From an uncultured archaeon (GTDB taxonomy: Archaea; Thermoproteota; Nitrososphaeria; Nitrososphaerales; Gagatemarchaeaceae): a stretch of DNA of 64,000 nucleotides. The notes beneath the pieces are model-generated. The model did no database searches and was not told where the DNA came from. It was given only the letters and a program-made list of their open reading frames with translations. How positions within the stretch are numbered: position 1 is the stretch's first letter; each line of letters begins with the position of its first letter. This document shows, in pieces, positions 28,452 through 36,626 of this stretch. Position numbers and translations under genes: made by a program. The DNA lies in NCBI GenBank assembly GCA_963817525.1, contig CAWFOU010000001.1, positions 288,001 through 352,000 on the forward strand. Reading direction: 5' to 3'.

Positions 28452-29819
28452 CACGTCAGGGGAAATCCCAGGTGCTTCAGCCCTGGGATGAATGAAAGCG
28501 AGGCGCTTTTATACGAAAAGAGACATCTCCGGGCAGATGCCTTCCGCGCTGCGCTTCCGTCTCTATCCGTCGCGCAAGCAGGAGGAGAGGATGCTGCGCT
28601 CGCTCGCGTCGTGCCGAAGTCTCTGGAACGACGCCCTGGCGCACCGGAGAAGCAGATGGCAGGACAAGCGCATATCAACATCGTACGACCTCCAGCAATG
28701 GATCCTGACCGAGGAGCGGCACCTGGATCCCGAGCTCGGAACTCTCTACTCTCAAGTTGGTCAGGATGTCCTCCATCGCCTCGACAGGGCGTTCAAAGGC
28801 TTCTTCAATCACCAATCAGGATATCCGAAGTTTAAGAAGTTCTCGACTAGTGGCTCGTTCACGTACCCGCAGGCGTACAACGGGTCGGTCAAGCCCGACG
28901 TTCGAAGAAGCCGCTTGTACGTCTCGAAGATCGGCAACATCCCGGCTGTCTTCCATCGTCAGCTTCCCAAGGCCTCTAGGATGAAGACGTGCACGCTGAC
29001 CAGAGAGCCAGACGGCAAGTGGTTCGCGTCGATGGTCTTCGAGGAGGTCGTCCCGCTGCAGGATCTGTCGGGACAGGTTACCGTGATTCCAAGCAAGCCG
29101 GTCGGGGTGGACCTTGGCCTCCTCTCGCTCATCGTCACCTCCGACGGCGAGGGCGTCGAGCATCCGCGCTTCCTCCGCAAGTCAGAGAAGCGGCTGAAGC
29201 GCCTCCAGCGCGTCTTCTCCCACAAGAAGAAGGGCTCTAAGAACAGGTCCAAGGCACGACAGCGCGTCGCGTCCCAGCACGCGAAGGTCGGACGCCAGCG
29301 CCTCGACTTCAACCACAAGCTCTCTTCGAATCTCGTCAAACGGCACGATTTCATCGCGTTCGAGGACCTTCGCATAGAGAACATGGTCAAGAACCACAGG
29401 CTGGCCAAATCGATCCAGGACGCGGCTTGGGGTCAGCTCATTACATTGACAGAGTACAAGACCCTGAAGGTCGGCTCACGCATCGTCAAGGTCCCTCCAG
29501 CCTATACGACCCAGGAGTGCATGTACTGCGGCGCGCTCAACAAGATCTCTCTCGACGTACGAGAGTTCGGTTGCATCGGCTGCGGTCGCCACCTATATCG
29601 CGACCACAACGCCGCAAACGTGGTGCTGAAGCGCGGCCTGGCCATCGCGGGCCTTGTCGTCGCATCGAAGGTAGGGCAGGTCATGCCCGATCTCAAGCCT
29701 ATGGAGACCAGGCCCCTGTTCCTTCAGACAACTGGGAGAGCAAGCAAGGTCAATGAAGCAGGAACTATACGCCCGCAAGGGCTGGAAGCCCACGGCCTCC
29801 AGCCGTGAGAGGATGTCAC
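28452..29819 (+). mobile_element. IS200/IS605-family non-autonomous element (tnpB only, IS1341-like)
   Basis: Preceded by TTTAA; left-end hairpin ATCCCAGG-tgcttcagc-CCTGGGAT; right end GAAGCCCACGGCCTCCAGCCGTGAGAGGATGTCAC; no tnpA. Confidence 0.88.
28537..29808 (+). CDS. tnpB: RNA-guided endonuclease TnpB
   Basis: FRLYP HTH, RuvC GVDLG / AFEDL / RDHNAA intact, CMYC..CIGC Zn finger. Confidence 0.95.
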   Translation: MPSALRFRLYPSRKQEERMLRSLASCRSLWNDALAHRRSRWQDKRISTSYDLQQWILTEERHLDPELGTLYSQVGQDVLHRLDRAFKGFFNHQSGYPKFKKFSTSGSFTYPQAYNGSVKPDVRRSRLYVSKIGNIPAVFHRQLPKASRMKTCTLTREPDGKWFASMVFEEVVPLQDLSGQVTVIPSKPVGVDLGLLSLIVTSDGEGVEHPRFLRKSEKRLKRLQRVFSHKKKGSKNRSKARQRVASQHAKVGRQRLDFNHKLSSNLVKRHDFIAFEDLRIENMVKNHRLAKSIQDAAWGQLITLTEYKTLKVGSRIVKVPPAYTTQECMYCGALNKISLDVREFGCIGCGRHLYRDHNAANVVLKRGLAIAGLVVASKVGQVMPDLKPMETRPLFLQTTGRASKVNEAGTIRPQGLEAHGLQP

Positions 29820-29846
29820 GCGGAGTCGGAGGGGTTCGAGTCTAAC

Positions 29847-30395
29847 TTGGCCTCACCTCGCACGCGGCTGTGGCTGGTCACCGGCCCCCCCGGGATAGGC
29901 AAGTCCACGCTCGTCTCCAAGGTGGTCTTCGCGGTCAGGTCGAAGGGGCTCGGGGTCGGGGGCTGCCTCACGCGGGAGGTGCGGAAGGGCCGGGAGCGGA
30001 CGGGCTTCCGGCTGATCGACCTGCTCAGCGGGAACGAGGCGGAGCTGGCCTCGGTCGGCGGGCTAGGCCCGCGGGTGGGCAAATACCGAGTCAACATCAC
30101 GAACCTCTCCTCGCTGGGGGCGGGGTCCCTCCTCCGCGCCGCGGAGGTAGCGGACCTCATTGTCATCGACGAGGTAGGCCCGATGGAGCTCACGAGCCCC
30201 GAGTTCAGGAAGGGGGTGAAGGCCTGCCTCGCTTCCGGCAAGCCGATGCTCGTCGTTCTGCACGAGAGCATGAAGGACCCGCTCATGACGGAGATCACCG
30301 AGCAGCCGGACAAGGAGTTCGTCGAGCTTACCCTCCACAACAGGGAGGGGGTCTCCCAGCAGCTCCCCGAGCAGATTGCCTTAAGCCTCGGATAG
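29847..30395 (+). CDS. Nucleoside-triphosphatase (THEP1/NTPase_1 family)
   Basis: VTGPPGIGKST, GGCLTREVR, RVGKYRV, IDEVGPMEL. Confidence 0.92.
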   Translation: MASPRTRLWLVTGPPGIGKSTLVSKVVFAVRSKGLGVGGCLTREVRKGRERTGFRLIDLLSGNEAELASVGGLGPRVGKYRVNITNLSSLGAGSLLRAAEVADLIVIDEVGPMELTSPEFRKGVKACLASGKPMLVVLHESMKDPLMTEITEQPDKEFVELTLHNREGVSQQLPEQIALSLG

Positions 30396-30411: not shown

Positions 30412-31516
30412 ATGCGTCTCGGCGGCGTGGCCTTGTCTATTGTGACTTCCCGCACCTGACATCTGCGCTGAAATAGGTCTCGCCATTCTCCATTTACGAA
30501 AACCTCAGGCCAAGACTTGGCGCAGACAGTAGGACTCTGGCTGGCAGAAGGTGACCACAAAACGCTCCGCGAGGTTACATTCACCAACAATGACCCGAAA
30601 CTCATTTCCTTTTTTCACCTTGTTCTTTGGAAATACTTCAGGCCACGCAACCCCGCGAGAATCTATGTGTATTGGCCGTCTGAGGACATCACTTTCCAAC
30701 GGTCTGTCCCGGGTGCGGTCTACAGGATTTATGTTGACCGTCGGGCCAACACGCCCTATTACATTTACAGAGTGTCTGGAGTTGAATTGGTGAGAGTCTG
30801 GAGAAGGACGGAGCGGGCGATATGCGCTGAACCGAGAAATTATCGAGGAATACTTCAGGGTTTTTTCGCCGGCGAGGGCAACGTCAAGGACATCGTCGGC
30901 CACCATTCCAGAGTCCTCAGAATCGCTCAAGGCAAGAGACTCGGTCTTCTTGAGCGGATTTTGCGCTCTTTCGATGTGAGCTTCACTTACGAACCTTCGG
31001 AAAGAGCCTATGTAATTTCGGGACGAGAGAATCTAGAGAAGTTATGGAGAATCAGCATAAGCGAACTGCATTCGAAGAAACAGGCAAGATTTACAGCCAT
31101 GATGTCCTCGTACCAACAGTATCATTACGGGCGTCAGTTTCTCGGTCCCCGAATTTCAGAGATTCTCTCTTCCCCGCTGACCACTACCGAAGTTGCCGAC
31201 AGAGTCGAGGTAAATCAAGGGTTAGTCAGGTCCTGACCGCGCTCAACCGGAATGGTGAGGTCGAAATGTTCAAGGTAAGAAGCTCGTGCTACTGGATTAG
31301 GAGCGACCAACGATGCGTGATAATTTCCAACGAGAAGTCCAAAATCCTCAAATTGCTTTCTTCCCCTCTCCGAACATGCGAGATCGCCCGGCGTGTTGCT
31401 CGGACGGAAAAGTCGGTTTCGAAAAGACTAGCAGAGTTGATAGGCTCGGACTGGTTGAGAGAGCAAACTCTAATTGGCGAGCAATCGAGGTATCAAAGCG
31501 GGTGATTGTCAAATAA
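30412..31516 (+). pseudogene. Two-motif LAGLIDADG endonuclease-like gene with tandem C-terminal wHTH, frameshifted
   Basis: GLWLAEGD..VTFTNND and GFFAGEG motifs; C-terminal frames give SPLTTTEVADRV/KSRVSQVL and SPLRTCEIARRV..SVSKRLAEL/RLGLV; shifts near 31208 and 31439; lower GC than flanks. Confidence 0.75.
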
Positions 31517-32192
31517 AGCTCATCGCTGGGGTCGATGAGGCCGGGAGAGAGCGCGACGAAAAGTCGCCTCCCCGCGAGGTTGTGTACTCGGCCCCCTCGC
31601 GGTCGCCGGCGTCTCGATAGAATCGTCGAGATTGGAGGAGCTCGCCGAGCTCGGCGTCAAGGACTCGAAGATGCTCTCGCCAGAGCAGCGGGAGGCGATG
31701 TACCCCGAGATCCTGAGGATCTGCGACCGCGTGGAGGTCTCTCGCATCCCGCCGAAGATGATAGACCGCTACGTCAGCAGGGGGAAGAAGTACAGGCGCC
31801 TCAACTATCTCGAGACCATCCACATGGCGAAGGTAATCGACGCGCTGGGGGTCGACGAGGTCTTCGTGGACGCCCCGGACGTCAACCCGGTGAGGTTCAA
31901 GGCGGAGCTTGAGGAGCTGCTTTCGTGCAGGCCGAGGATAGTCGCCGAGCACAAGGCGGACGTGAACTACGCCGTCGTCTCCGCCGCGTCGATCGTCGCG
32001 AAGGTCGAGAGGGACAGCGACATCGCCCAGCTCAGGGAGATCCACGGGGACTTTGGGTCCGGCTACCCCTCCGATCCCGACACGATAGCGTTCCTCGAGT
32101 CGTGGGTCAAGGCCAACAGCTCGCAGCCAGAGTTCGCCAGGAAGAGCTGGAAGACCTGGGAAAGGATCTTCGTCTACGCTACCCTGGACTAG
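31474..32192 (+). CDS. rnhB: Ribonuclease HII, intron-containing: join(31474..31547,31577..32192)
   Basis: IAGVDEAGR|GCVLGPLAVAGV is restored only after removing 29 nt; then GVKDSK, HKAD, VSAASIVAKVERD, GSGYPSDP; TTG 31474 start is tentative. Confidence 0.93.
31548..31576 (+). other. 29-nt BHB mRNA intron in rnhB
   Basis: CGGG-AG^A-GAG-c-GCGAC-gaaaa-GTCGC-CTC-CCCG-CG^A; 4-bp helix CGGG/CCCG with two 3-nt bulges. Confidence 0.88.
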
Positions 32193-32193
32193 C

Positions 32194-32883
32194 TCAGGGC
32201 ATCTTCGCCGAGATCAGCGCGTGGTCCTTGTCAAAGGGGCGCAGGTCGATCACCCTCTCTACGACGAACCCCGCCTCGTTCAGCTTCTGCGCCTCCTCCC
32301 TGAACACTAGCTTGGGGTCCTTGAGCTGGTCGATGCTCCTGGCCTTCACGATGAGAAGGAGCCTCCCTCCCTCCTTGAGGTGCCTCTTCGCGTTCTCCAT
32401 GGCAATCTCCGTCTGGTCCCTCTGCGCGATGTCGCAGTAGACGACGTCCATCTTCCCGAACTCCCCGAACCTCTCCGTCTCCCGGGCGTCCGAGATGAAC
32501 GGGATGACGTTCCCCCTCGCCTTCGCTACCTTCTCGAGGAACTCCCGGCCCACGCGGGCGGACATCTCCACGCCGACCACCAGCCCCTCGCCCCCCACGA
32601 TGTCCGAGACGTGCGAGGCCGTGGTGCCCGTCGAGGCGCCCAGGTAGAGGACCTTGTCCCCCGCCTTGATGATGTCAGGGTCCAGCTCGCCCTTGAGGAT
32701 GGCTCCGGCGAGCTTGCTCCTGTAGGGGTCCCAGCTGCGGTACTCACTGCCGTGGATCCTCAGAAGGTCTTCGTCGTATACCCTATTGCCCGGGACGAGG
32801 TTTCTTGTAAAAACGCTTGTCCTTCCGTCCTCCCGGTTTCCTCTCCGCCCCCGGCCTTCCATAACGAGGACGTTGGTTGTCAT
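32194..32883 (-). CDS. flpA: Fibrillarin (box C/D 2'-O-methyltransferase)
   Basis: WDPYRSKL, VLYLGASTGTTASHVSD, DIAQRDQ, KARSID, PFDKDH. Confidence 0.96.
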   Translation of the reverse strand: MTTNVLVMEGRGRRGNREDGRTSVFTRNLVPGNRVYDEDLLRIHGSEYRSWDPYRSKLAGAILKGELDPDIIKAGDKVLYLGASTGTTASHVSDIVGGEGLVVGVEMSARVGREFLEKVAKARGNVIPFISDARETERFGEFGKMDVVYCDIAQRDQTEIAMENAKRHLKEGGRLLLIVKARSIDQLKDPKLVFREEAQKLNEAGFVVERVIDLRPFDKDHALISAKMP

Positions 32884-34024
32884 TTCGGCGGAACTCTCTT
32901 CGCTGCTCGGGTCGCGGCGGCGGTGGCTCCTTATACTTTATCTTGATCTCGGCGAGCCTCTTCTCGAACAGGCCCGTCAGCTCGTTGGCCTTGGTCCCCC
33001 TGTAGTAGTCGATCCGGGCGGCGATGGCTATCTTGTTGGCCAGGGTCCTAGCGATCTTGCCCCTCTGCCACTTCGGGGCCATGTGGACCGCCTCGTGCTG
33101 GAAGAGTATGCCGTGCTTCGGGGGCCTCGACCCCGTCCTTATGGCCCTGAAGAGCGCCTTCTCCGCGCCCAGTACCTGTATCGTGCTCGCGGGCAGCCTC
33201 GCCATCCTCTCGAGCCCCCCGGCCCTCGCGATGAGCCTCGCGCCGATCGTTGCCCCTGCGACCTGCGTGATGTTGGGGGCGATCTTGTTCATGGTCGAGT
33301 CGACGGTCTCTGCCATCTTCTCCCTCTCGTTGGCGGTCTTGACCGCGAGCTCGGCCAGGCCGACGATCCGATGCATGTCCTTCTCGGAGATCGTCCCTCC
33401 CTTGGACTTCTCCGACGCCAGCATTATCGCCTCTGCCTTCTTGCCGGCGTAGCCCTGCTTCTCAAGCGCCTCTTCGTCGAAGGTCCCGCGCCTCCCTATC
33501 TCGATTATCAGCTTGGCGAGGGCGAGGTTGTCCTTCAGGATGTCCTGCAGCTCGGGGAAGTGCAGGCTATACCATTCCATCGTCCTCTCCGTCGTGATAT
33601 TGAGGAAGCGGTCGAGCTCGTCGAGGGCCTGGATGGCGTTGACGAGGTGCAGGTCCTCCTTGGAGGAGGCCTCGCTCACCTCGTGCTCGGCCGCCGCGAT
33701 CGCGCGGGCCCTCGCCTCTCCTATGGCGCTCCCAGCGTCTCGAGCGAGCCCCGCCTTTGCCATTATCGCAGCCTTCCTAGAGTCGAGGTCGTCGCGCTCC
33801 TCGTCGGTCGCTATCGACGTCTCGATCCCGAACTCCTCCATCTTCTCCTTCGCAGGCATGCTGGAGACCTTGAGGCGGGAGATGCCCTTGCGCTTGACCC
33901 CCTCGGCGACCCTCTCCAGCTTCTCATCCCTCTCCATCGCCTCGGCCCTCTCCGAGACGAGGACGTCGTCCCCCTGGACGACTATGAACCCCGCCTCCGT
34001 CTCGTAGAGAATCGGCTCTGGCAA
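32783..34024 (-). CDS. nop5: Box C/D RNP protein Nop5 (Nop56/58)
   Basis: EWYSLHFPEL, APN, PASTIQVLGAEKALF, PKHGILFQ, RGKIAR..AARIDY; start estimated at TTG 34024. Confidence 0.95.
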   Translation of the reverse strand: MPEPILYETEAGFIVVQGDDVLVSERAEAMERDEKLERVAEGVKRKGISRLKVSSMPAKEKMEEFGIETSIATDEERDDLDSRKAAIMAKAGLARDAGSAIGEARARAIAAAEHEVSEASSKEDLHLVNAIQALDELDRFLNITTERTMEWYSLHFPELQDILKDNLALAKLIIEIGRRGTFDEEALEKQGYAGKKAEAIMLASEKSKGGTISEKDMHRIVGLAELAVKTANEREKMAETVDSTMNKIAPNITQVAGATIGARLIARAGGLERMARLPASTIQVLGAEKALFRAIRTGSRPPKHGILFQHEAVHMAPKWQRGKIARTLANKIAIAARIDYYRGTKANELTGLFEKRLAEIKIKYKEPPPPRPEQRREFRRNDNQRPRYGRPGAERKPGGRKDKRFYKKPRPGQ

Positions 34025-34153
34025 GAAAAATTCGATTCCAGCGTCCGCGGGGCACGGATAAAGGTTGTCGCTGCGGGTTGAACTCACGCTCTTCGCCAAT
34101 CGGCGGCTGAGGTCCTTCGAACCGACGTGGGCGGTTAAATCATCTGATTCGAT

Positions 34154-34793
34154 GTGTTGATGTTGGAACTGAGGTTCTGTGGGTCCTGTGGAAGGGCGCT
34201 GGAGAGGACGAAAAACGCCAAGTTTTGCGACAGGGCTTGCTATGCGCAGGCAGTCAGAGATGGCATCACCTCGAACAATGGCCGCTTTCGAAAGGGCAAC
34301 CCGTCCCCCAAAAAGGCAGGACGCTCGAATCTTGGGTCGGGGAGGAGAGAGCTCAAGAGATCAGAAACAGGATGTCTCAATCGTCGAAAGGGAAGGCCCC
34401 TTGGCTTAGAAGGTTGAACGAAGATGCGGAAGTCTTGGCGAAGAGAAAGGCTTCACGAAGATTCCACGAAGCCACCGTCCAAGAACTCGTCAAGCAATTC
34501 AGGAAGCTTGGTTGGAAGTGTTACACGCTGTCCGAATACGTCAGGGAAACGAGAACACCTGACGCGATTCTGTTTGACGGGAGAGAGCTCGTTGCGCTGG
34601 AGTGGAGCTGAAGAAGAAATGGAAGCCCAGCGCTGAGTTGATGACCCGGCGCCTGACCGATCTGAACGACCAATCGAGGTTCTTTGATAGGACAAGCCTG
34701 GTATTTCCAGACGAGAGGACTGAGCTGACCAAACAGATCCCCTCTTTCGTGGACGAGATATTGACTCACAAAAGATTATATCGGGACTCTTGA
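34154..34793 (+). pseudogene. Homing-endonuclease-like gene (Zn finger + NUMOD3-like + PD-(D/E)xK-type nuclease), two frameshifts
   Basis: CGSCG..FCDRAC; FRKGNPSPKK/GRTLE..EIRNRMSQSSKGKAPW; TPDAILFDGRELVALE/VELKK; shifts near 34316 and 34602; lower GC. Confidence 0.7.
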
Positions 34794-34823
34794 TGCTCGG
34801 AATCGGAGGACTGAAAACAAAAC

Positions 34824-35019
34824 ATGCCGACCCACGGGAGTCAGCAGCTAAGAGCAAGTCTTACTGCCTCCAATCACTAAGGCCGGAAAAGTTCGCAGCC
34901 AAACGCCGAAAATTGAGGGAAAGCCCCACAAGGGTAAGATCCCCAAGGTCAGGAACACCCGGACCTACGTGAAGAGATTCACACTAAAGAGAAAGCCCGG
35001 ACAGAATTGGAGACTTTAG
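34824..35019 (+). CDS. rps30e: 30S ribosomal protein S30e, intron-containing: join(34824..34842,34874..35019)
   Basis: Spliced product [54 protein letters not shown] (54 aa); absent from the ORF track. Confidence 0.93.
34843..34873 (+). other. 31-nt BHB mRNA intron in rps30e
   Basis: GGAG-TC^A-GCAG-c-TAAGA-gcaag-TCTTA-CTGC-CTCC-AA^T; 4-bp helix GGAG/CTCC with two 3-nt bulges. Confidence 0.9.
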
Positions 35020-36626
35020 ACTCCAATCCTCCCTCGGAAGGAGAGCTGGCGGCAGTCTCCTCGATTGTCGCCTCCATCCTCTCAGGGGACGTCACGTCCC
35101 GCCCCCACCTGGAGCGGGCCAAGAAGGAGGCCGCGAAGCGCTATCGTCTCGGCAAGTTCCTCAAGAACTCTCAGATCTACCTCGCGCTCTCACCAGAGGA
35201 GCGAGAAGGGAGGAAGGAGATGTTCCGCGTCCACCCCCGGAGGAGCGCCTCCGGAATCGTCATCGTCACTGTCTTCACGTCCCCTGCCAGCTGCCCCCAC
35301 GGCACCTGCGTCTACTGCCCGGGCGGCCCCTCCATGGGGACGCCCCAGAGCTACGTCCCTGACGGCCCCAGCATGAGAGGCGCGCGCGGGGTCGGCTTCG
35401 ACCCCTTCCTCCAGGCGCAGAAGATGCTCAGGAAGTACCTAGACCGCGGGCACGAGGCCTCGAAGGTCGAGCTGATGGTGGAGGGCGGGACCTTCCTCGC
35501 GATGCCGAGGGGATACCAGGAGTGGTTCATCAAGGGGGCGTTTGACGGCCTCAACTGCGCGCAGACTCCTTCTGTGTCTCTCGAGGAGGCACACACGGCA
35601 AACGAGTCGGCGGAGTACAGGTCAGTGGGCCTCACCATAGAGACCAAGCCTGACTGGTGCCGGCCCGAGCACGTCGACATGCTCCTCTCGTACGGGGTCA
35701 CCAAGGTGGAGATAGGGGTCCAAGCCCTAAGGGACGACATACTCGCGAGGAGCAACCGGGGCCACACCGTCCAGGACACGCTCGACGCGTTCCGCGTGGC
35801 GCGGGACGCCGGGCTCAAGGTCGCGGCCCACATGATGCCGGGGCTCCCCGGCTCCAACCCGGAGGACGACCTCGCCGACCTCCTGCGGCTGTTCGAGGAA
35901 GAGTCCCTCCGCCCCGACATGATGAAGCTCTACCCCACCACCGTCGTGAAGGGGACGGCCCTCGCGAAGATGTGCGAAGCGGGGCTCTACGAGCCCTACG
36001 ACCTCGAAACCGTCGTCAGCCTAATCGCCGAGATGAAGGTGCACGTCCCGCCCTGGCACAGGATAATGAGGATACAGCGGGAGATACCCGAGGCCGACAT
36101 CGCGGCCGGCAACAAGGCGGGGAACCTCAGGGAGCTCGTCCTCGCAAGGGTGAAGGCCGACGGCCACTCGTGCGGCTGCATAAGGTGCCGCGAGGTGGGC
36201 ATGGACACCCCCTCCGACCTCCAGGGCGGCGAAGAGGGCGACCTCGTCCTGCGCGTCACGAGCTATCCTGCCTCGGGAGGCGCCGAGGTCTTCGCCACCT
36301 ACGAGTACGAAAGGTCGGGCAAGCTCGCGGGGTTCGTCAGGATGCGCTCCCCGTCCGAGAGGTCGCACCGGCCGGAGATGGGCGGAGCTTGCATAGTGAG
36401 GGAGCTCAAGGTCTACGGGAGGGTGGTCTCTGTGGGCTCGAGGGACGAGCAGGCCTTCCAGCACCGGGGGCTGGGACGCTCCCTCCTCGAGGAGATGGAG
36501 AAGGAGGCCTCTGAGCGCTTCGACGCTCGCACGCTCCTGGTGATGAGCGCCGTGGGGACGAGGAACTACTATAGGAAGCACGGCTACGAGAGGTCGGGCC
36601 CCTACGTGGGCAAGAGTCTGAAATAG
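35007..36626 (+). CDS. elp3: Elp3 tRNA uridine(34) acetyltransferase (radical SAM + KAT)
   Basis: CPHGTCVYCPGG, PQSY, GGTF, ETKPD, RIQREIP, VRELKVYG, QHRGLG. Confidence 0.95.
   Translation: METLDSNPPSEGELAAVSSIVASILSGDVTSRPHLERAKKEAAKRYRLGKFLKNSQIYLALSPEEREGRKEMFRVHPRRSASGIVIVTVFTSPASCPHGTCVYCPGGPSMGTPQSYVPDGPSMRGARGVGFDPFLQAQKMLRKYLDRGHEASKVELMVEGGTFLAMPRGYQEWFIKGAFDGLNCAQTPSVSLEEAHTANESAEYRSVGLTIETKPDWCRPEHVDMLLSYGVTKVEIGVQALRDDILARSNRGHTVQDTLDAFRVARDAGLKVAAHMMPGLPGSNPEDDLADLLRLFEEESLRPDMMKLYPTTVVKGTALAKMCEAGLYEPYDLETVVSLIAEMKVHVPPWHRIMRIQREIPEADIAAGNKAGNLRELVLARVKADGHSCGCIRCREVGMDTPSDLQGGEEGDLVLRVTSYPASGGAEVFATYEYERSGKLAGFVRMRSPSERSHRPEMGGACIVRELKVYGRVVSVGSRDEQAFQHRGLGRSLLEEMEKEASERFDARTLLVMSAVGTRNYYRKHGYERSGPYVGKSLK

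Follow-up and report, generated by a model that had tools for sequence, protein, structure and literature searches.

The window, that is, the whole stretch of DNA that was analysed, comprises 64,000 nucleotides (G000:C1:288001-352000) of an archaeal metagenome-assembled genome designated G000, which totals 2.8 Mb in 15 contigs and is 95% complete and 8.75% contaminated. It contains two modules of the same layout, one built around rnhB, the gene for RNase HII, and the other around rps30e. In each, a nuclease-like open reading frame (ORF) is followed on the same strand by a housekeeping gene whose 5' end is split by a micro-intron of the bulge-helix-bulge (BHB) type. The ORF 5' of rnhB, which combines LAGLIDADG motifs with winged helix-turn-helix domains, is called LAG, and the zinc-ribbon PD-(D/E)xK ORF 5' of rps30e is called N2. 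A third ORF, N3, encodes a zinc-finger LAGLIDADG protein and is paired in relatives with a second rps30e intron, intron B. Genomes of relatives carry G numbers and individual loci L numbers. The twofold layout had been proposed in a first-pass annotation of the sequence, and both modules were found at the coordinates listed here:

30412-32192, plus strand: module 1 (rnhB)
30412-30430, plus strand: remnant of the native rnhB 5' end, ATG CGT CTC GGC GGC GTG G (MRLGGV)
30517-31516, plus strand: LAG pseudogene (LAGLIDADG and two winged helices), in three frames
31513-31547, plus strand: rnhB exon 1, cassette-borne, reading ...KLIAGVDEAGR
31548-31576, plus strand: BHB micro-intron of rnhB, 29 nt
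31577-32192, plus strand: rnhB exon 2, the RNase HII body (Pfam RNase_HII, E 2e-32)
34160-35019, plus strand: module 2 (rps30e)
34160-34793, plus strand: N2 ORF (zinc ribbon and PD-(D/E)xK), in three frames, stop TGA at 34791-93
34824-34842, plus strand: rps30e exon 1, cassette-borne, ATG, MPTHGS and the first base of a Leu codon
34843-34873, plus strand: BHB micro-intron A of rps30e, 31 nt
34874-35019, plus strand: rps30e exon 2, stop TAG at 35017-19

The RNase HII body at 31577-32192 is without its N-terminal catalytic motif, which sits in another frame and ends at position 31547. The 29 nt between the two fold as a BHB. Here, a central 4-bp helix is formed by CGGG (31542-45) and CCCG (31571-74), the 3-nt bulges are AGA (31546-48) and CGA (31575-77), and the inner hairpin consists of 31549-51 paired with 31568-70 plus 31553-57 paired with 31563-67. 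Excision of 31548-31576 in silico, with cuts past the second base of each bulge, regains the in-frame reading ...DEAGR-GCVLGPLAVAG.... Intron A of rps30e has the same architecture: a central 4-bp helix of GGAG (34837-40) and CUCC (34868-71), 3-nt bulges UCA (34841-43) and AAU (34872-74), and an inner hairpin of 4 + 5 bp (34844-47 with 34864-67 and 34849-53 with 34859-63). When 34843-34873 is removed by equivalent cuts, the rps30e frame and its conserved motif (HGS/LTK, the slash marking the intron site) are exactly regained. Both genes are single-copy in G000, with one match each genome-wide. The proposal that a BHB intron of about 30 nt splits the 5' motif of each gene is thus borne out, for rnhB with restoration of DEAGRG and for rps30e with restoration of its own motif.

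The outer exon-exon helix, as assigned by hand, is just 1-2 bp in both introns and is absent from computed folds. Both are relaxed BHBs that fall short of the strict hBHBh' form, and the minimum free energy (MFE) folds of the two regions are ordinary when compared with shuffles (z -0.65 to -1.5). Cleavage of such a BHB would call for a splicing endonuclease (EndA) of broad specificity. Two EndA-family matches are present in G000 (PF01974, 93.7 and 78.5 bits), and these genes presumably encode a two-subunit enzyme of broad specificity. RtcB is also present (479.7 bits, C1:1102130-1104943). The RtcB gene is itself interrupted; its match is broken at profile position 50 into two parts that lie about 1.4 kb from each other within one 996-aa frame.

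The start of the first module differs from what had been proposed. The ATG at 30412 had been taken as the start of the nuclease gene; instead, it belongs to a native rnhB start that was left behind, and the LAG ORF runs from 30517. The stretch at 30412-30430 is separated from the stop codon of the preceding NTPase gene by the same distance as the true rnhB start in cassette-free relatives, and it is this spacing that identifies it as the displaced native start. In those relatives the rnhB start reads MLVGGVDEAGRG (M-L-V-G-G-V-D-E-A-G-R-G). Among the relatives that carry the cassette, G019 retains MLVGGVD, G017 and G009 have ACG instead of the ATG, and G010 and G015 lack the remnant. A model in which MRLGGV is an exon 0 and LAG lies inside a single large ORF-bearing intron was rejected, both because of the ACG codons and because of the missing remnants.

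The LAG gene of G000 spans three frames and thus carries two frameshifts, near 31210 and near 31450, before the TAA at 31514-16; it retains the motifs LWLAEGD and GFFAGEGN. N2 is also shifted twice, near 34310 and near 34605. For one of these shifts, located in a C5A6 run, an assembly error is a possible cause; the neighbouring housekeeping genes are free of frameshifts. The GC content is 0.50 in the LAG stretch and 0.53 in the N2 stretch, compared with 0.63 for the window.

The association of the rnhB intron with LAG holds among relatives. Thirty rnhB loci were looked at, of which L014, L018 and L024 were excluded because the contig ends before the N-terminus, leaving 27, 18 of them from the same genus. 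The intron is present in seven (G000, G017, G009, G019, G020, G010 and G015). A tblastn match to LAG was found at all seven intron-bearing loci and at none of the 20 that are intron-free; it is full-length in five carriers and a remnant in G017 and G020. The co-occurrence of intron and nuclease gene that the first-pass annotation had proposed to look for is therefore complete among these 27 rnhB loci. In the seven carriers, the final 60 nt of LAG, exon 1 and the intron are nearly identical. Their exon 1 codons (GGGGTCGATGAGGCCGGGAGA) differ from those of native alleles (GGCGTCGACGAAGCGGGCCGC), so that the cassette supplies its own exon 1.

Further out, a class-wide rnhB search covered 401 genomes, mostly of ammonia oxidisers. 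Among the best 150 of 403 matches, a late-starting rnhB was seen only in G000, G417 and G357, and G334 has an internal TAG; in the same set, the unpublished genomes G169, G319 and G361 appear intron-free, and these three enter no other result given here. G357 has both LAG and the intron, and an ATG in place of ATA at the rnhB start position overlaps the LAG stop as ATGA. In G417 the intron is kept and LAG is reduced to a 3' stump. G334 has an in-frame intron of 30 nt, which contains the TAG, and no LAG. No further copies of LAG or N2 were found in G000 by tblastn.

The cassette-borne rnhB has an unusual start region. In G000 an in-frame ATA (31513-31515) overlaps the LAG stop as ATAA, and ATG or GTG occupies this position in G357 and in many loci of DPANN archaea. 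ATA is kept there in two genera (seen in L204 of G417 and in L002, L004, L007, L008 and L010). An alternative in-frame TTG at 31474 of G000 is shut off by a stop in G015. This pattern suggests that the cassette-borne rnhB initiates at a near-cognate codon. In native rps30e of most genomes of the genus, ACG stands in the ATG position (ACG CCA ACx CAC GG...; L031, L036, L038-L048 and L050), with a GGTG Shine-Dalgarno sequence about 8 nt 5'; downstream of the preceding stop, none of ATG, GTG and TTG occurs in frame. ATG is limited to cassette-borne alleles, G022 and outgroups. Either ACG would initiate translation of native rps30e or there is some unseen alternative.

The pairing of LAG with rnhB is not a local oddity and is a pan-archaeal family. 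The LAG protein of G019 (P0001) was used as a query and retrieved 195 proteins at E <= 0.001, mostly of about 340 aa. These are annotated as "hypothetical" or "predicted transcriptional regulator", and those with named sources come from several DPANN lineages and the Hadarchaeaceae. A pattern scan of species-representative genomes yielded 80 LAG loci, which by their record titles belong to Nitrososphaeria/Thaumarchaeota, Aenigmatarchaeota, Nanoarchaeota, Woesearchaeota, Pacearchaeota, Micrarchaeota, Iainarchaeum, Nanohaloarchaea, Altiarchaeota, Thermoplasmata and Methanosarcinales. An RNase HII body follows on the same strand, about 90-130 nt past LAG, in 78 of the 80; at the other two the contig ends first. 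The rnhB bodies are full-length in all 78, LAG is uninterrupted in 63, and an insert of 20-73 nt is present at the DEAGRG motif in 65. The stop codon of LAG and the start codon of rnhB share bases (GTGA or ATGA) in many DPANN loci, where the Shine-Dalgarno sequence GAGGTGAT falls within the last codons of LAG.

These inserts share the geometry of the G000 intron. A perfect 4-bp central helix in the G000 register was found in 50 of 63 automatically parsed inserts, compared with 0-4 of 63 when the register was slid by 1-3 nt. The helix is formed by the last base of the Ala codon and the Gly codon, which pair with intron bases, and it occurs in 17 pair combinations (for example CGGG/CCCG, UGGC/GCCA, CGGU/GCCG and AGGA/UCCU). 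The 5' bulge corresponds to the Arg codon. It is AGU in 12 loci and AGC in two, where the unspliced reading would be DEAGS; in these, the last base of the 3' bulge supplies an A, and splicing yields AGA, which is Arg. Over the 63 parsed inserts, the joined codon is Arg in 56 and Lys in seven, all seven in other registers. Sixteen loci were re-examined: eight fit a strict BHB, mostly shifted by -1 or +2 nt (L117 is in the main register with a variant motif), two have three of the four central pairs, and five were left without an assigned fit. In Micrarchaeota the splice falls after AGA-G. Overall, the intron sequences are highly divergent and the insertion site is constant.

At 13 of the LAG loci the motif is uninterrupted. 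Of the 12 that were parsed, ten carry a variant in place of DEAGRG, namely DDSGRG, DDAGRG or DEAGKG (L082, L084, L087, L094, L100, L101, L107, L110, L129 and L138). These variants could be cleavage-resistant alleles. DDAGR is also found together with an intron, at L098, L103, L106, L109 and L111.

The second module was compared over 30 rps30e loci. Intron A is present in six (G000, G008, G014, G018, G021 and G024), and N2 lies 5' of rps30e in four of these and in none of the 24 loci without intron A. N2 is intact in G018, G014 and G021, at 204-211 aa. In addition, metagenome contigs were scanned with the N2 alignment, which gave 53 loci, seven of which end within 12 nt of the ORF. At all 46 informative loci, rps30e exon 1 and an intron A of 31 or 32 nt come directly 3' of N2; 45 of these loci fit the pattern, and in L152 exon 1 is short of 1 nt through a deletion. 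Co-occurrence at rps30e is thus confirmed in one direction, in that intron A always follows N2 (4/4 genomes and 46/46 informative metagenome loci).

The fold of intron A is supported by comparison. A strict BHB parse was passed by 42 of 44 rps30e loci. Across 33 sequences, 30 of them distinct, 93.6% of cells are paired, compared with 21-52% in slid registers. Six pairs are changed on both sides, and the second central pair (A-U in 20, G-C in 10 of the sequences) tracks the wobble base of the Gly codon. The covariation score was reached by none of 500 shuffles, a control that is inflated by relatedness.

A further intron, intron B, lies six codons past the site of intron A, at TKAGK/VR. It is 19 nt long, occurs in nine of the 30 rps30e loci and has the geometry GGGG/AAA, hairpin UGCC-loop-GGCA, CCCU/UUA. 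Seven genomes have intron B without intron A (G006, G012, G009, G003, G004, G016 and G007), and in all seven the N3 ORF, of about 200 aa, lies 5' on the same strand. N3 is absent from the 17 intron-free rps30e loci and wherever N2 holds the upstream slot; intron B without N3 was seen where N2 holds that slot, in G021, G024 and 24 metagenome loci. The suggestion that the strategy arose more than once, which had been based on two nuclease families, is strengthened by this third, unrelated pairing. In genomes without either intron (L031 of G017, L033 of G022 and L036 of G020), the spacer between nop56 and rps30e, which in carriers is occupied by N2 or N3, contains an opposite-strand ORF of 160-190 aa with a hydrophobic N-terminal stretch.

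Both upstream ORFs of the window had been claimed to be nucleases; LAG is nuclease-like in its fold and its conserved catalytic residues, and N2 in its conserved residues and probably also in its fold. The AlphaFold model of LAG has a predicted local distance difference test score (pLDDT) of 92.3. At E <= 1e-3 it has 39 matches in the PDB, headed by E-DreI, I-DmoI (template modelling (TM) score about 0.6), I-Tsp061I, bI3 maturase and WhiA. In its motifs LWLAEG and FAGEG, the residues E10, G11, E119 and G120 are invariant in 30 sequences, and the two glutamates are those that we take to be catalytic from the residues of I-DmoI. Two winged-helix domains follow the LAGLIDADG part (TrmB, 28.3 bits). 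With Pfam LAGLIDADG_3, the G019 protein scores 22.3 bits against a cut-off of 22.5 and the G000 protein 20.5 bits (E 6e-4); many LAG homologues carry a precomputed PF14528 hit.

The N2 model has a pLDDT of 79.9. Its best PDB matches are the endonuclease domain of the R2 retrotransposon and archaeal Hjc resolvases, with E from 2.5e-3 to 5e-3, probability 1.0 and a TM score of about 0.5 over about 90 columns; no PDB fold match was found at E <= 1e-3. The residues P132, D133, E146, V147, E148, K151 and K154 (PD...ExE..K) are invariant in 23 sequences and appear to map onto a PD-(D/E)xK active site, and four N-terminal cysteines are conserved. The labels given to N2 in the first-pass annotation therefore stand in part: the zinc ribbon and the PD-(D/E)xK residues are kept, whereas a Pfam search gave no N2 hit, and NUMOD3 had none at E <= 1 in three intact N2 copies. 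N3 has a C2H2 finger and one LAGLIDADG motif (YLAGFLDGEGG; LAGLIDADG_1, 23.7 bits against a cut-off of 23.1). NCBIfam has no family for LAG (sub-threshold helix-turn-helix hits only), N2 or N3, and a PDB sequence search with LAG and N2 gave nothing significant.

Several observations bear on mobility. The presence of the rnhB cassette is patchy among congeners (7/18). When the 63 loci whose LAG is uninterrupted are compared with one another, the LAG copies resemble each other more closely than do the RNase HII bodies beside them in 1353 of 1953 pairs, by more than 10 points in 304, and the two identities correlate with r = 0.46. Between Thermoplasmata and Woese- or Pacearchaeota copies, LAG is 54-57% identical and RNase HII 33-35%. 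These values are consistent with a spread of LAG between lineages after their divergence; alternatively, LAG may be under strong purifying selection. Inside the genus the relation is reversed, with LAG and RNase HII identities of 72% and 85% for G009 and of about 63% and 66% for G010, a difference that fits decay of LAG after fixation. The intron outlives a decayed or deleted nuclease gene in G017, G020, G417, G334, G008 and G024. The claim that the nucleases decayed after fixation suits the G000 copies, with two frameshifts each; across the pan-archaeal family, LAG is mostly intact (63/78). Some caution applies to frameshifts in relatives: housekeeping genes (elp3, nop56 and rnhB) are split over 2-3 frames at L009, L019, L040, L041 and L049, in the assemblies G010, G022, G009 and G021, so that some nuclease-ORF frameshifts of relatives, and a 1-nt insertion 5' of exon 1 in G010, may be assembly errors.

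Taken together, each module is probably, though far from certainly, a selfish homing cassette like those of phage collaborative homing, but one that relies on host-spliced BHB introns. The cassette would have two parts: a gene for a free-standing, site-specific nuclease immediately 5' of a housekeeping gene, and an ORF-less BHB micro-intron of 19-73 nt in the most conserved 5' codons of that gene. The intron sites are DEAGR/G in rnhB and HGS/LTK and TKAGK/VR in rps30e. The nuclease would recognise and cut the uninterrupted coding sequence of intron-less alleles; in the carrier, the intron would split the target and so make the carrier immune. Repair of the break from the carrier allele would then copy the nuclease gene, the replacement exon 1 and the intron together, and as these lie within about 30-50 bp their linkage is tight. 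Host EndA and RtcB would remove the intron from the mRNA, so that the cost to the host would be nil. After fixation, the nuclease gene would decay and the intron could outlast it. Cleavage specificity, immunity, co-conversion and in vivo splicing are the steps that we infer. The interpretation put forward at the outset thus survives in its linkage and its nuclease-like ORFs, is strengthened as to a repeated origin, is corrected as to the start at 30412 and finds no support for NUMOD3.

Several points weigh against the homing cassette. The rnhB motif is uninterrupted in 13 of the 78 LAG loci, which means that the nuclease can persist without the intron and that immunity there would need another basis. 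The cassette's exon 1 is recoded at most wobble positions relative to native alleles, which could make the intron dispensable for immunity. Both G000 introns have a weak outer helix. WhiA and bI3 maturase, which are LAGLIDADG proteins that do not cut, are among the top fold matches of LAG. Within the genus, LAG diverges roughly in step with its hosts, a pattern that ancient vertical descent followed by losses would explain no less well than repeated homing. In addition, an intact LAG and a stop/start overlap with an internal Shine-Dalgarno sequence are what might also be expected of a domesticated partner. Domestication is the main rival, in which the upstream proteins are sequence-specific DNA- or RNA-binding factors, WhiA- or maturase-like and no longer homing enzymes, that regulate the downstream gene or, in a variant, aid splicing of the relaxed BHB, with the intron making expression EndA-dependent. 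The average conservation of LAG, which exceeds that of RNase HII, its two winged-helix domains and the annotation of homologues as predicted transcriptional regulators all agree with such a role. It is nonetheless unlikely. Both LAGLIDADG glutamates are invariant, as in I-DmoI, and the catalytic glutamates are degenerate in WhiA; the protein is missing altogether from 20 of the 27 relatives' loci, and in several genomes its gene is decayed or deleted while rnhB stays intact. Moreover, the layout recurs with three unrelated nuclease families at three intron sites, and at 13 LAG loci there is no intron whose splicing could be aided.

Linkage without targeting comes next. Here, mobile nucleases would land beside conserved genes, and the micro-introns, whether independent BHB elements, repair scars or leftovers of ORF-bearing introns, would leave the nuclease's own target unprotected; the two would be found together through common descent on a single recombined segment, and not through functional cooperation. 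The cassette's own exon 1, with its different codon usage, accords with this, and if the 5' segment is inherited as a block, co-occurrence follows automatically. Introns without nucleases (G334, G417, G008, G024 and the 24 metagenome intron-B loci without N3) and nucleases without introns (the 13 LAG loci) are likewise as expected. Such hitch-hiking is doubtful all the same, since the pairing recurs with three unrelated nucleases, and for LAG across phyla whose RNase HII is 33-45% identical. Moreover, the intron is always in the most conserved codons, 30-50 bp from the nuclease stop, as expected of an element that splits a target, and intron sequences differ widely at a constant site. It is scarcely credible that the inserts are not introns at all and are instead frameshifting lesions in pseudogenes, assembly errors or signals for translational bypass or frameshifting. 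The ordinary MFE folds of the two G000 regions would suit that explanation, but one site is kept in 65 loci of many phyla with the downstream gene full-length, and rnhB and rps30e have no second copy in G000. Pseudogenes, assembly errors and translational bypass were rejected on two grounds, namely that the helices covary and that canonical EndA cuts restore the catalytic motif exactly, including the change from AGU to AGA.

The modules lie among other housekeeping genes in the window, with a TnpB-like ORF upstream:

28492-29808, plus strand: TnpB-like IS605 ORF, directly 5' of the NTPase gene
29805-30395, plus strand: NTPase
32194-32883, minus strand: fibrillarin
32783-34099, minus strand: Nop56/58
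35007-36626, plus strand: Elp3

The TnpB-like ORF is intact (438 aa), with OrfB_IS605, Cas12f1-like TNB and HTH_OrfB_IS605 domains. Elsewhere in G000 there are 31 LAGLIDADG_3 matches, many of them within open frames of 700-1800 aa that look like numerous inteins. Eleven matches are in short frames, and eight of these are within 1.5 kb of a tRNA gene:

C7:848077-848548, tRNA-adjoining LAGLIDADG_3 match
C7:269484-269942, tRNA-adjoining LAGLIDADG_3 match
C7:814219-814722, tRNA-adjoining LAGLIDADG_3 match
C1:706071-706571, tRNA-adjoining LAGLIDADG_3 match
C7:401125-401604, tRNA-adjoining LAGLIDADG_3 match
C1:676465-676896, tRNA-adjoining LAGLIDADG_3 match
C7:1045105-1045917, tRNA-adjoining LAGLIDADG_3 match
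C1:82453-83371, tRNA-adjoining LAGLIDADG_3 match

Five of the tRNAs are predicted to bear introns, and in one of the five, tRNA-Glu, the LAGLIDADG ORF is inside an 838-nt intron. A partnership of nuclease and BHB intron may thus exist at tRNA genes as well. A genome-wide BHB scan of G000 with a loose coding filter gave 5388 candidates, compared with 5234 and 4992 when the bulge sizes were wrong, and with a strict filter 1722 compared with 1445-1598, so that real introns were not separable from background; the scan regained the rnhB intron and missed that of rps30e. Low-GC islands in G000 numbered 302, too many to help as a guide to cassettes. It is conceivable, although the balance is somewhat against it, that free-standing site-specific nucleases are what generally drives the insertion and spread of ORF-less BHB micro-introns in the mRNA and tRNA genes of archaea.

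Parts of this arrangement are known from other systems. In the relevant passages of three papers on phages, collaborative homing is described as a free-standing nuclease gene beside a conserved gene with an ORF-less intron (PMC6083498, PMC2790892, PMC3984707). The modules resemble this in that a free-standing nuclease gene adjoins, and occurs together with, an ORF-less intron in a conserved gene. They differ in that the introns are BHBs of 19-73 nt, with removal by EndA and RtcB predicted, and not self-splicing group I ribozymes; in that the hosts are cellular archaea; and in that the nuclease gene precedes the start codon, exon 1 is supplied by the cassette, and cleavage is predicted. In cyanophage S-PM2, the nuclease F-CphI and the group I intron of psbA reportedly form such a pair, the nuclease cutting the intron-less allele at the insertion site and the pair moving as one, and mobE of phage T4 with I-TevIII is said to be a case of trans-homing by a free-standing endonuclease and an ORF-less intron.

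On the archaeal side, the pertinent part of one report describes a short BHB intron in the cbf5 pre-mRNA of Crenarchaeota that is cleaved by the tRNA splicing endonuclease and has been gained and lost among relatives (PMC2738675), and the corresponding passage of a 2025 paper cites only cbf5 work for archaeal introns in protein-coding genes (PMC12397907). As in cbf5, a protein-coding gene is broken here by a short BHB intron. Unlike cbf5, the genes are rnhB and rps30e, the hosts by record titles are Nitrososphaeria, DPANN, Thermoplasmata and others, and the introns are at the extreme 5' end, each tied to an adjoining nuclease gene; to our knowledge, no tie to a nuclease gene has been reported for the cbf5 intron. 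BHB introns of rRNA and tRNA genes that encode LAGLIDADG enzymes (I-DmoI, I-PorI and I-Tsp061I) share the splicing chemistry, and homing would likewise be into a conserved site; LAG, like I-DmoI and I-Tsp061I, both among its best fold matches, is a monomeric LAGLIDADG protein with a double motif. In introns of the I-DmoI type, however, the nuclease gene is inside a stable-RNA intron, whereas here it is outside, 5' of a protein-coding gene; moreover, the intron is little beyond a BHB motif and LAG has two extra winged-helix domains. WhiA and bI3 maturase resemble LAG in layout, a LAGLIDADG scaffold with a C-terminal helix-turn-helix, but LAG keeps both catalytic acidic residues invariant, is patchily distributed and decays readily. 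A literature search, with subscription journals and supplements outside its reach, found no description of BHB introns in rnhB or rps30e or of a pairing of nuclease and BHB intron.

Among archaeal protein-coding genes, cbf5 is essentially the only one known to contain introns. Two further interrupted genes are added here, and rnhB is broken at the same codon in at least 65 genomes, placed by their record titles in DPANN lineages, Thermoplasmata, Methanosarcinales, Altiarchaeota and Nitrososphaeria. The tie between intron and nuclease would offer a concrete mechanism for the gain of ORF-less BHB introns and would be the equivalent, in archaea and with splicing by the host, of phage collaborative homing. 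In annotation, these rnhB and rps30e genes will come out of gene callers as truncated or frameshifted, and the nuclease is labelled "transcriptional regulator" or "hypothetical protein". As enzymes, the nucleases would be new rare cutters, with predicted targets in universally conserved coding motifs. If the general proposal holds, the three pairings, together with the LAGLIDADG ORFs beside tRNA genes, would represent a hidden class of two-part mobile elements that outsource their splicing, of which the rnhB cassette would be a pan-archaeal example moving between phyla; the gain of ORF-less BHB introns at conserved sites would thereby be explained.

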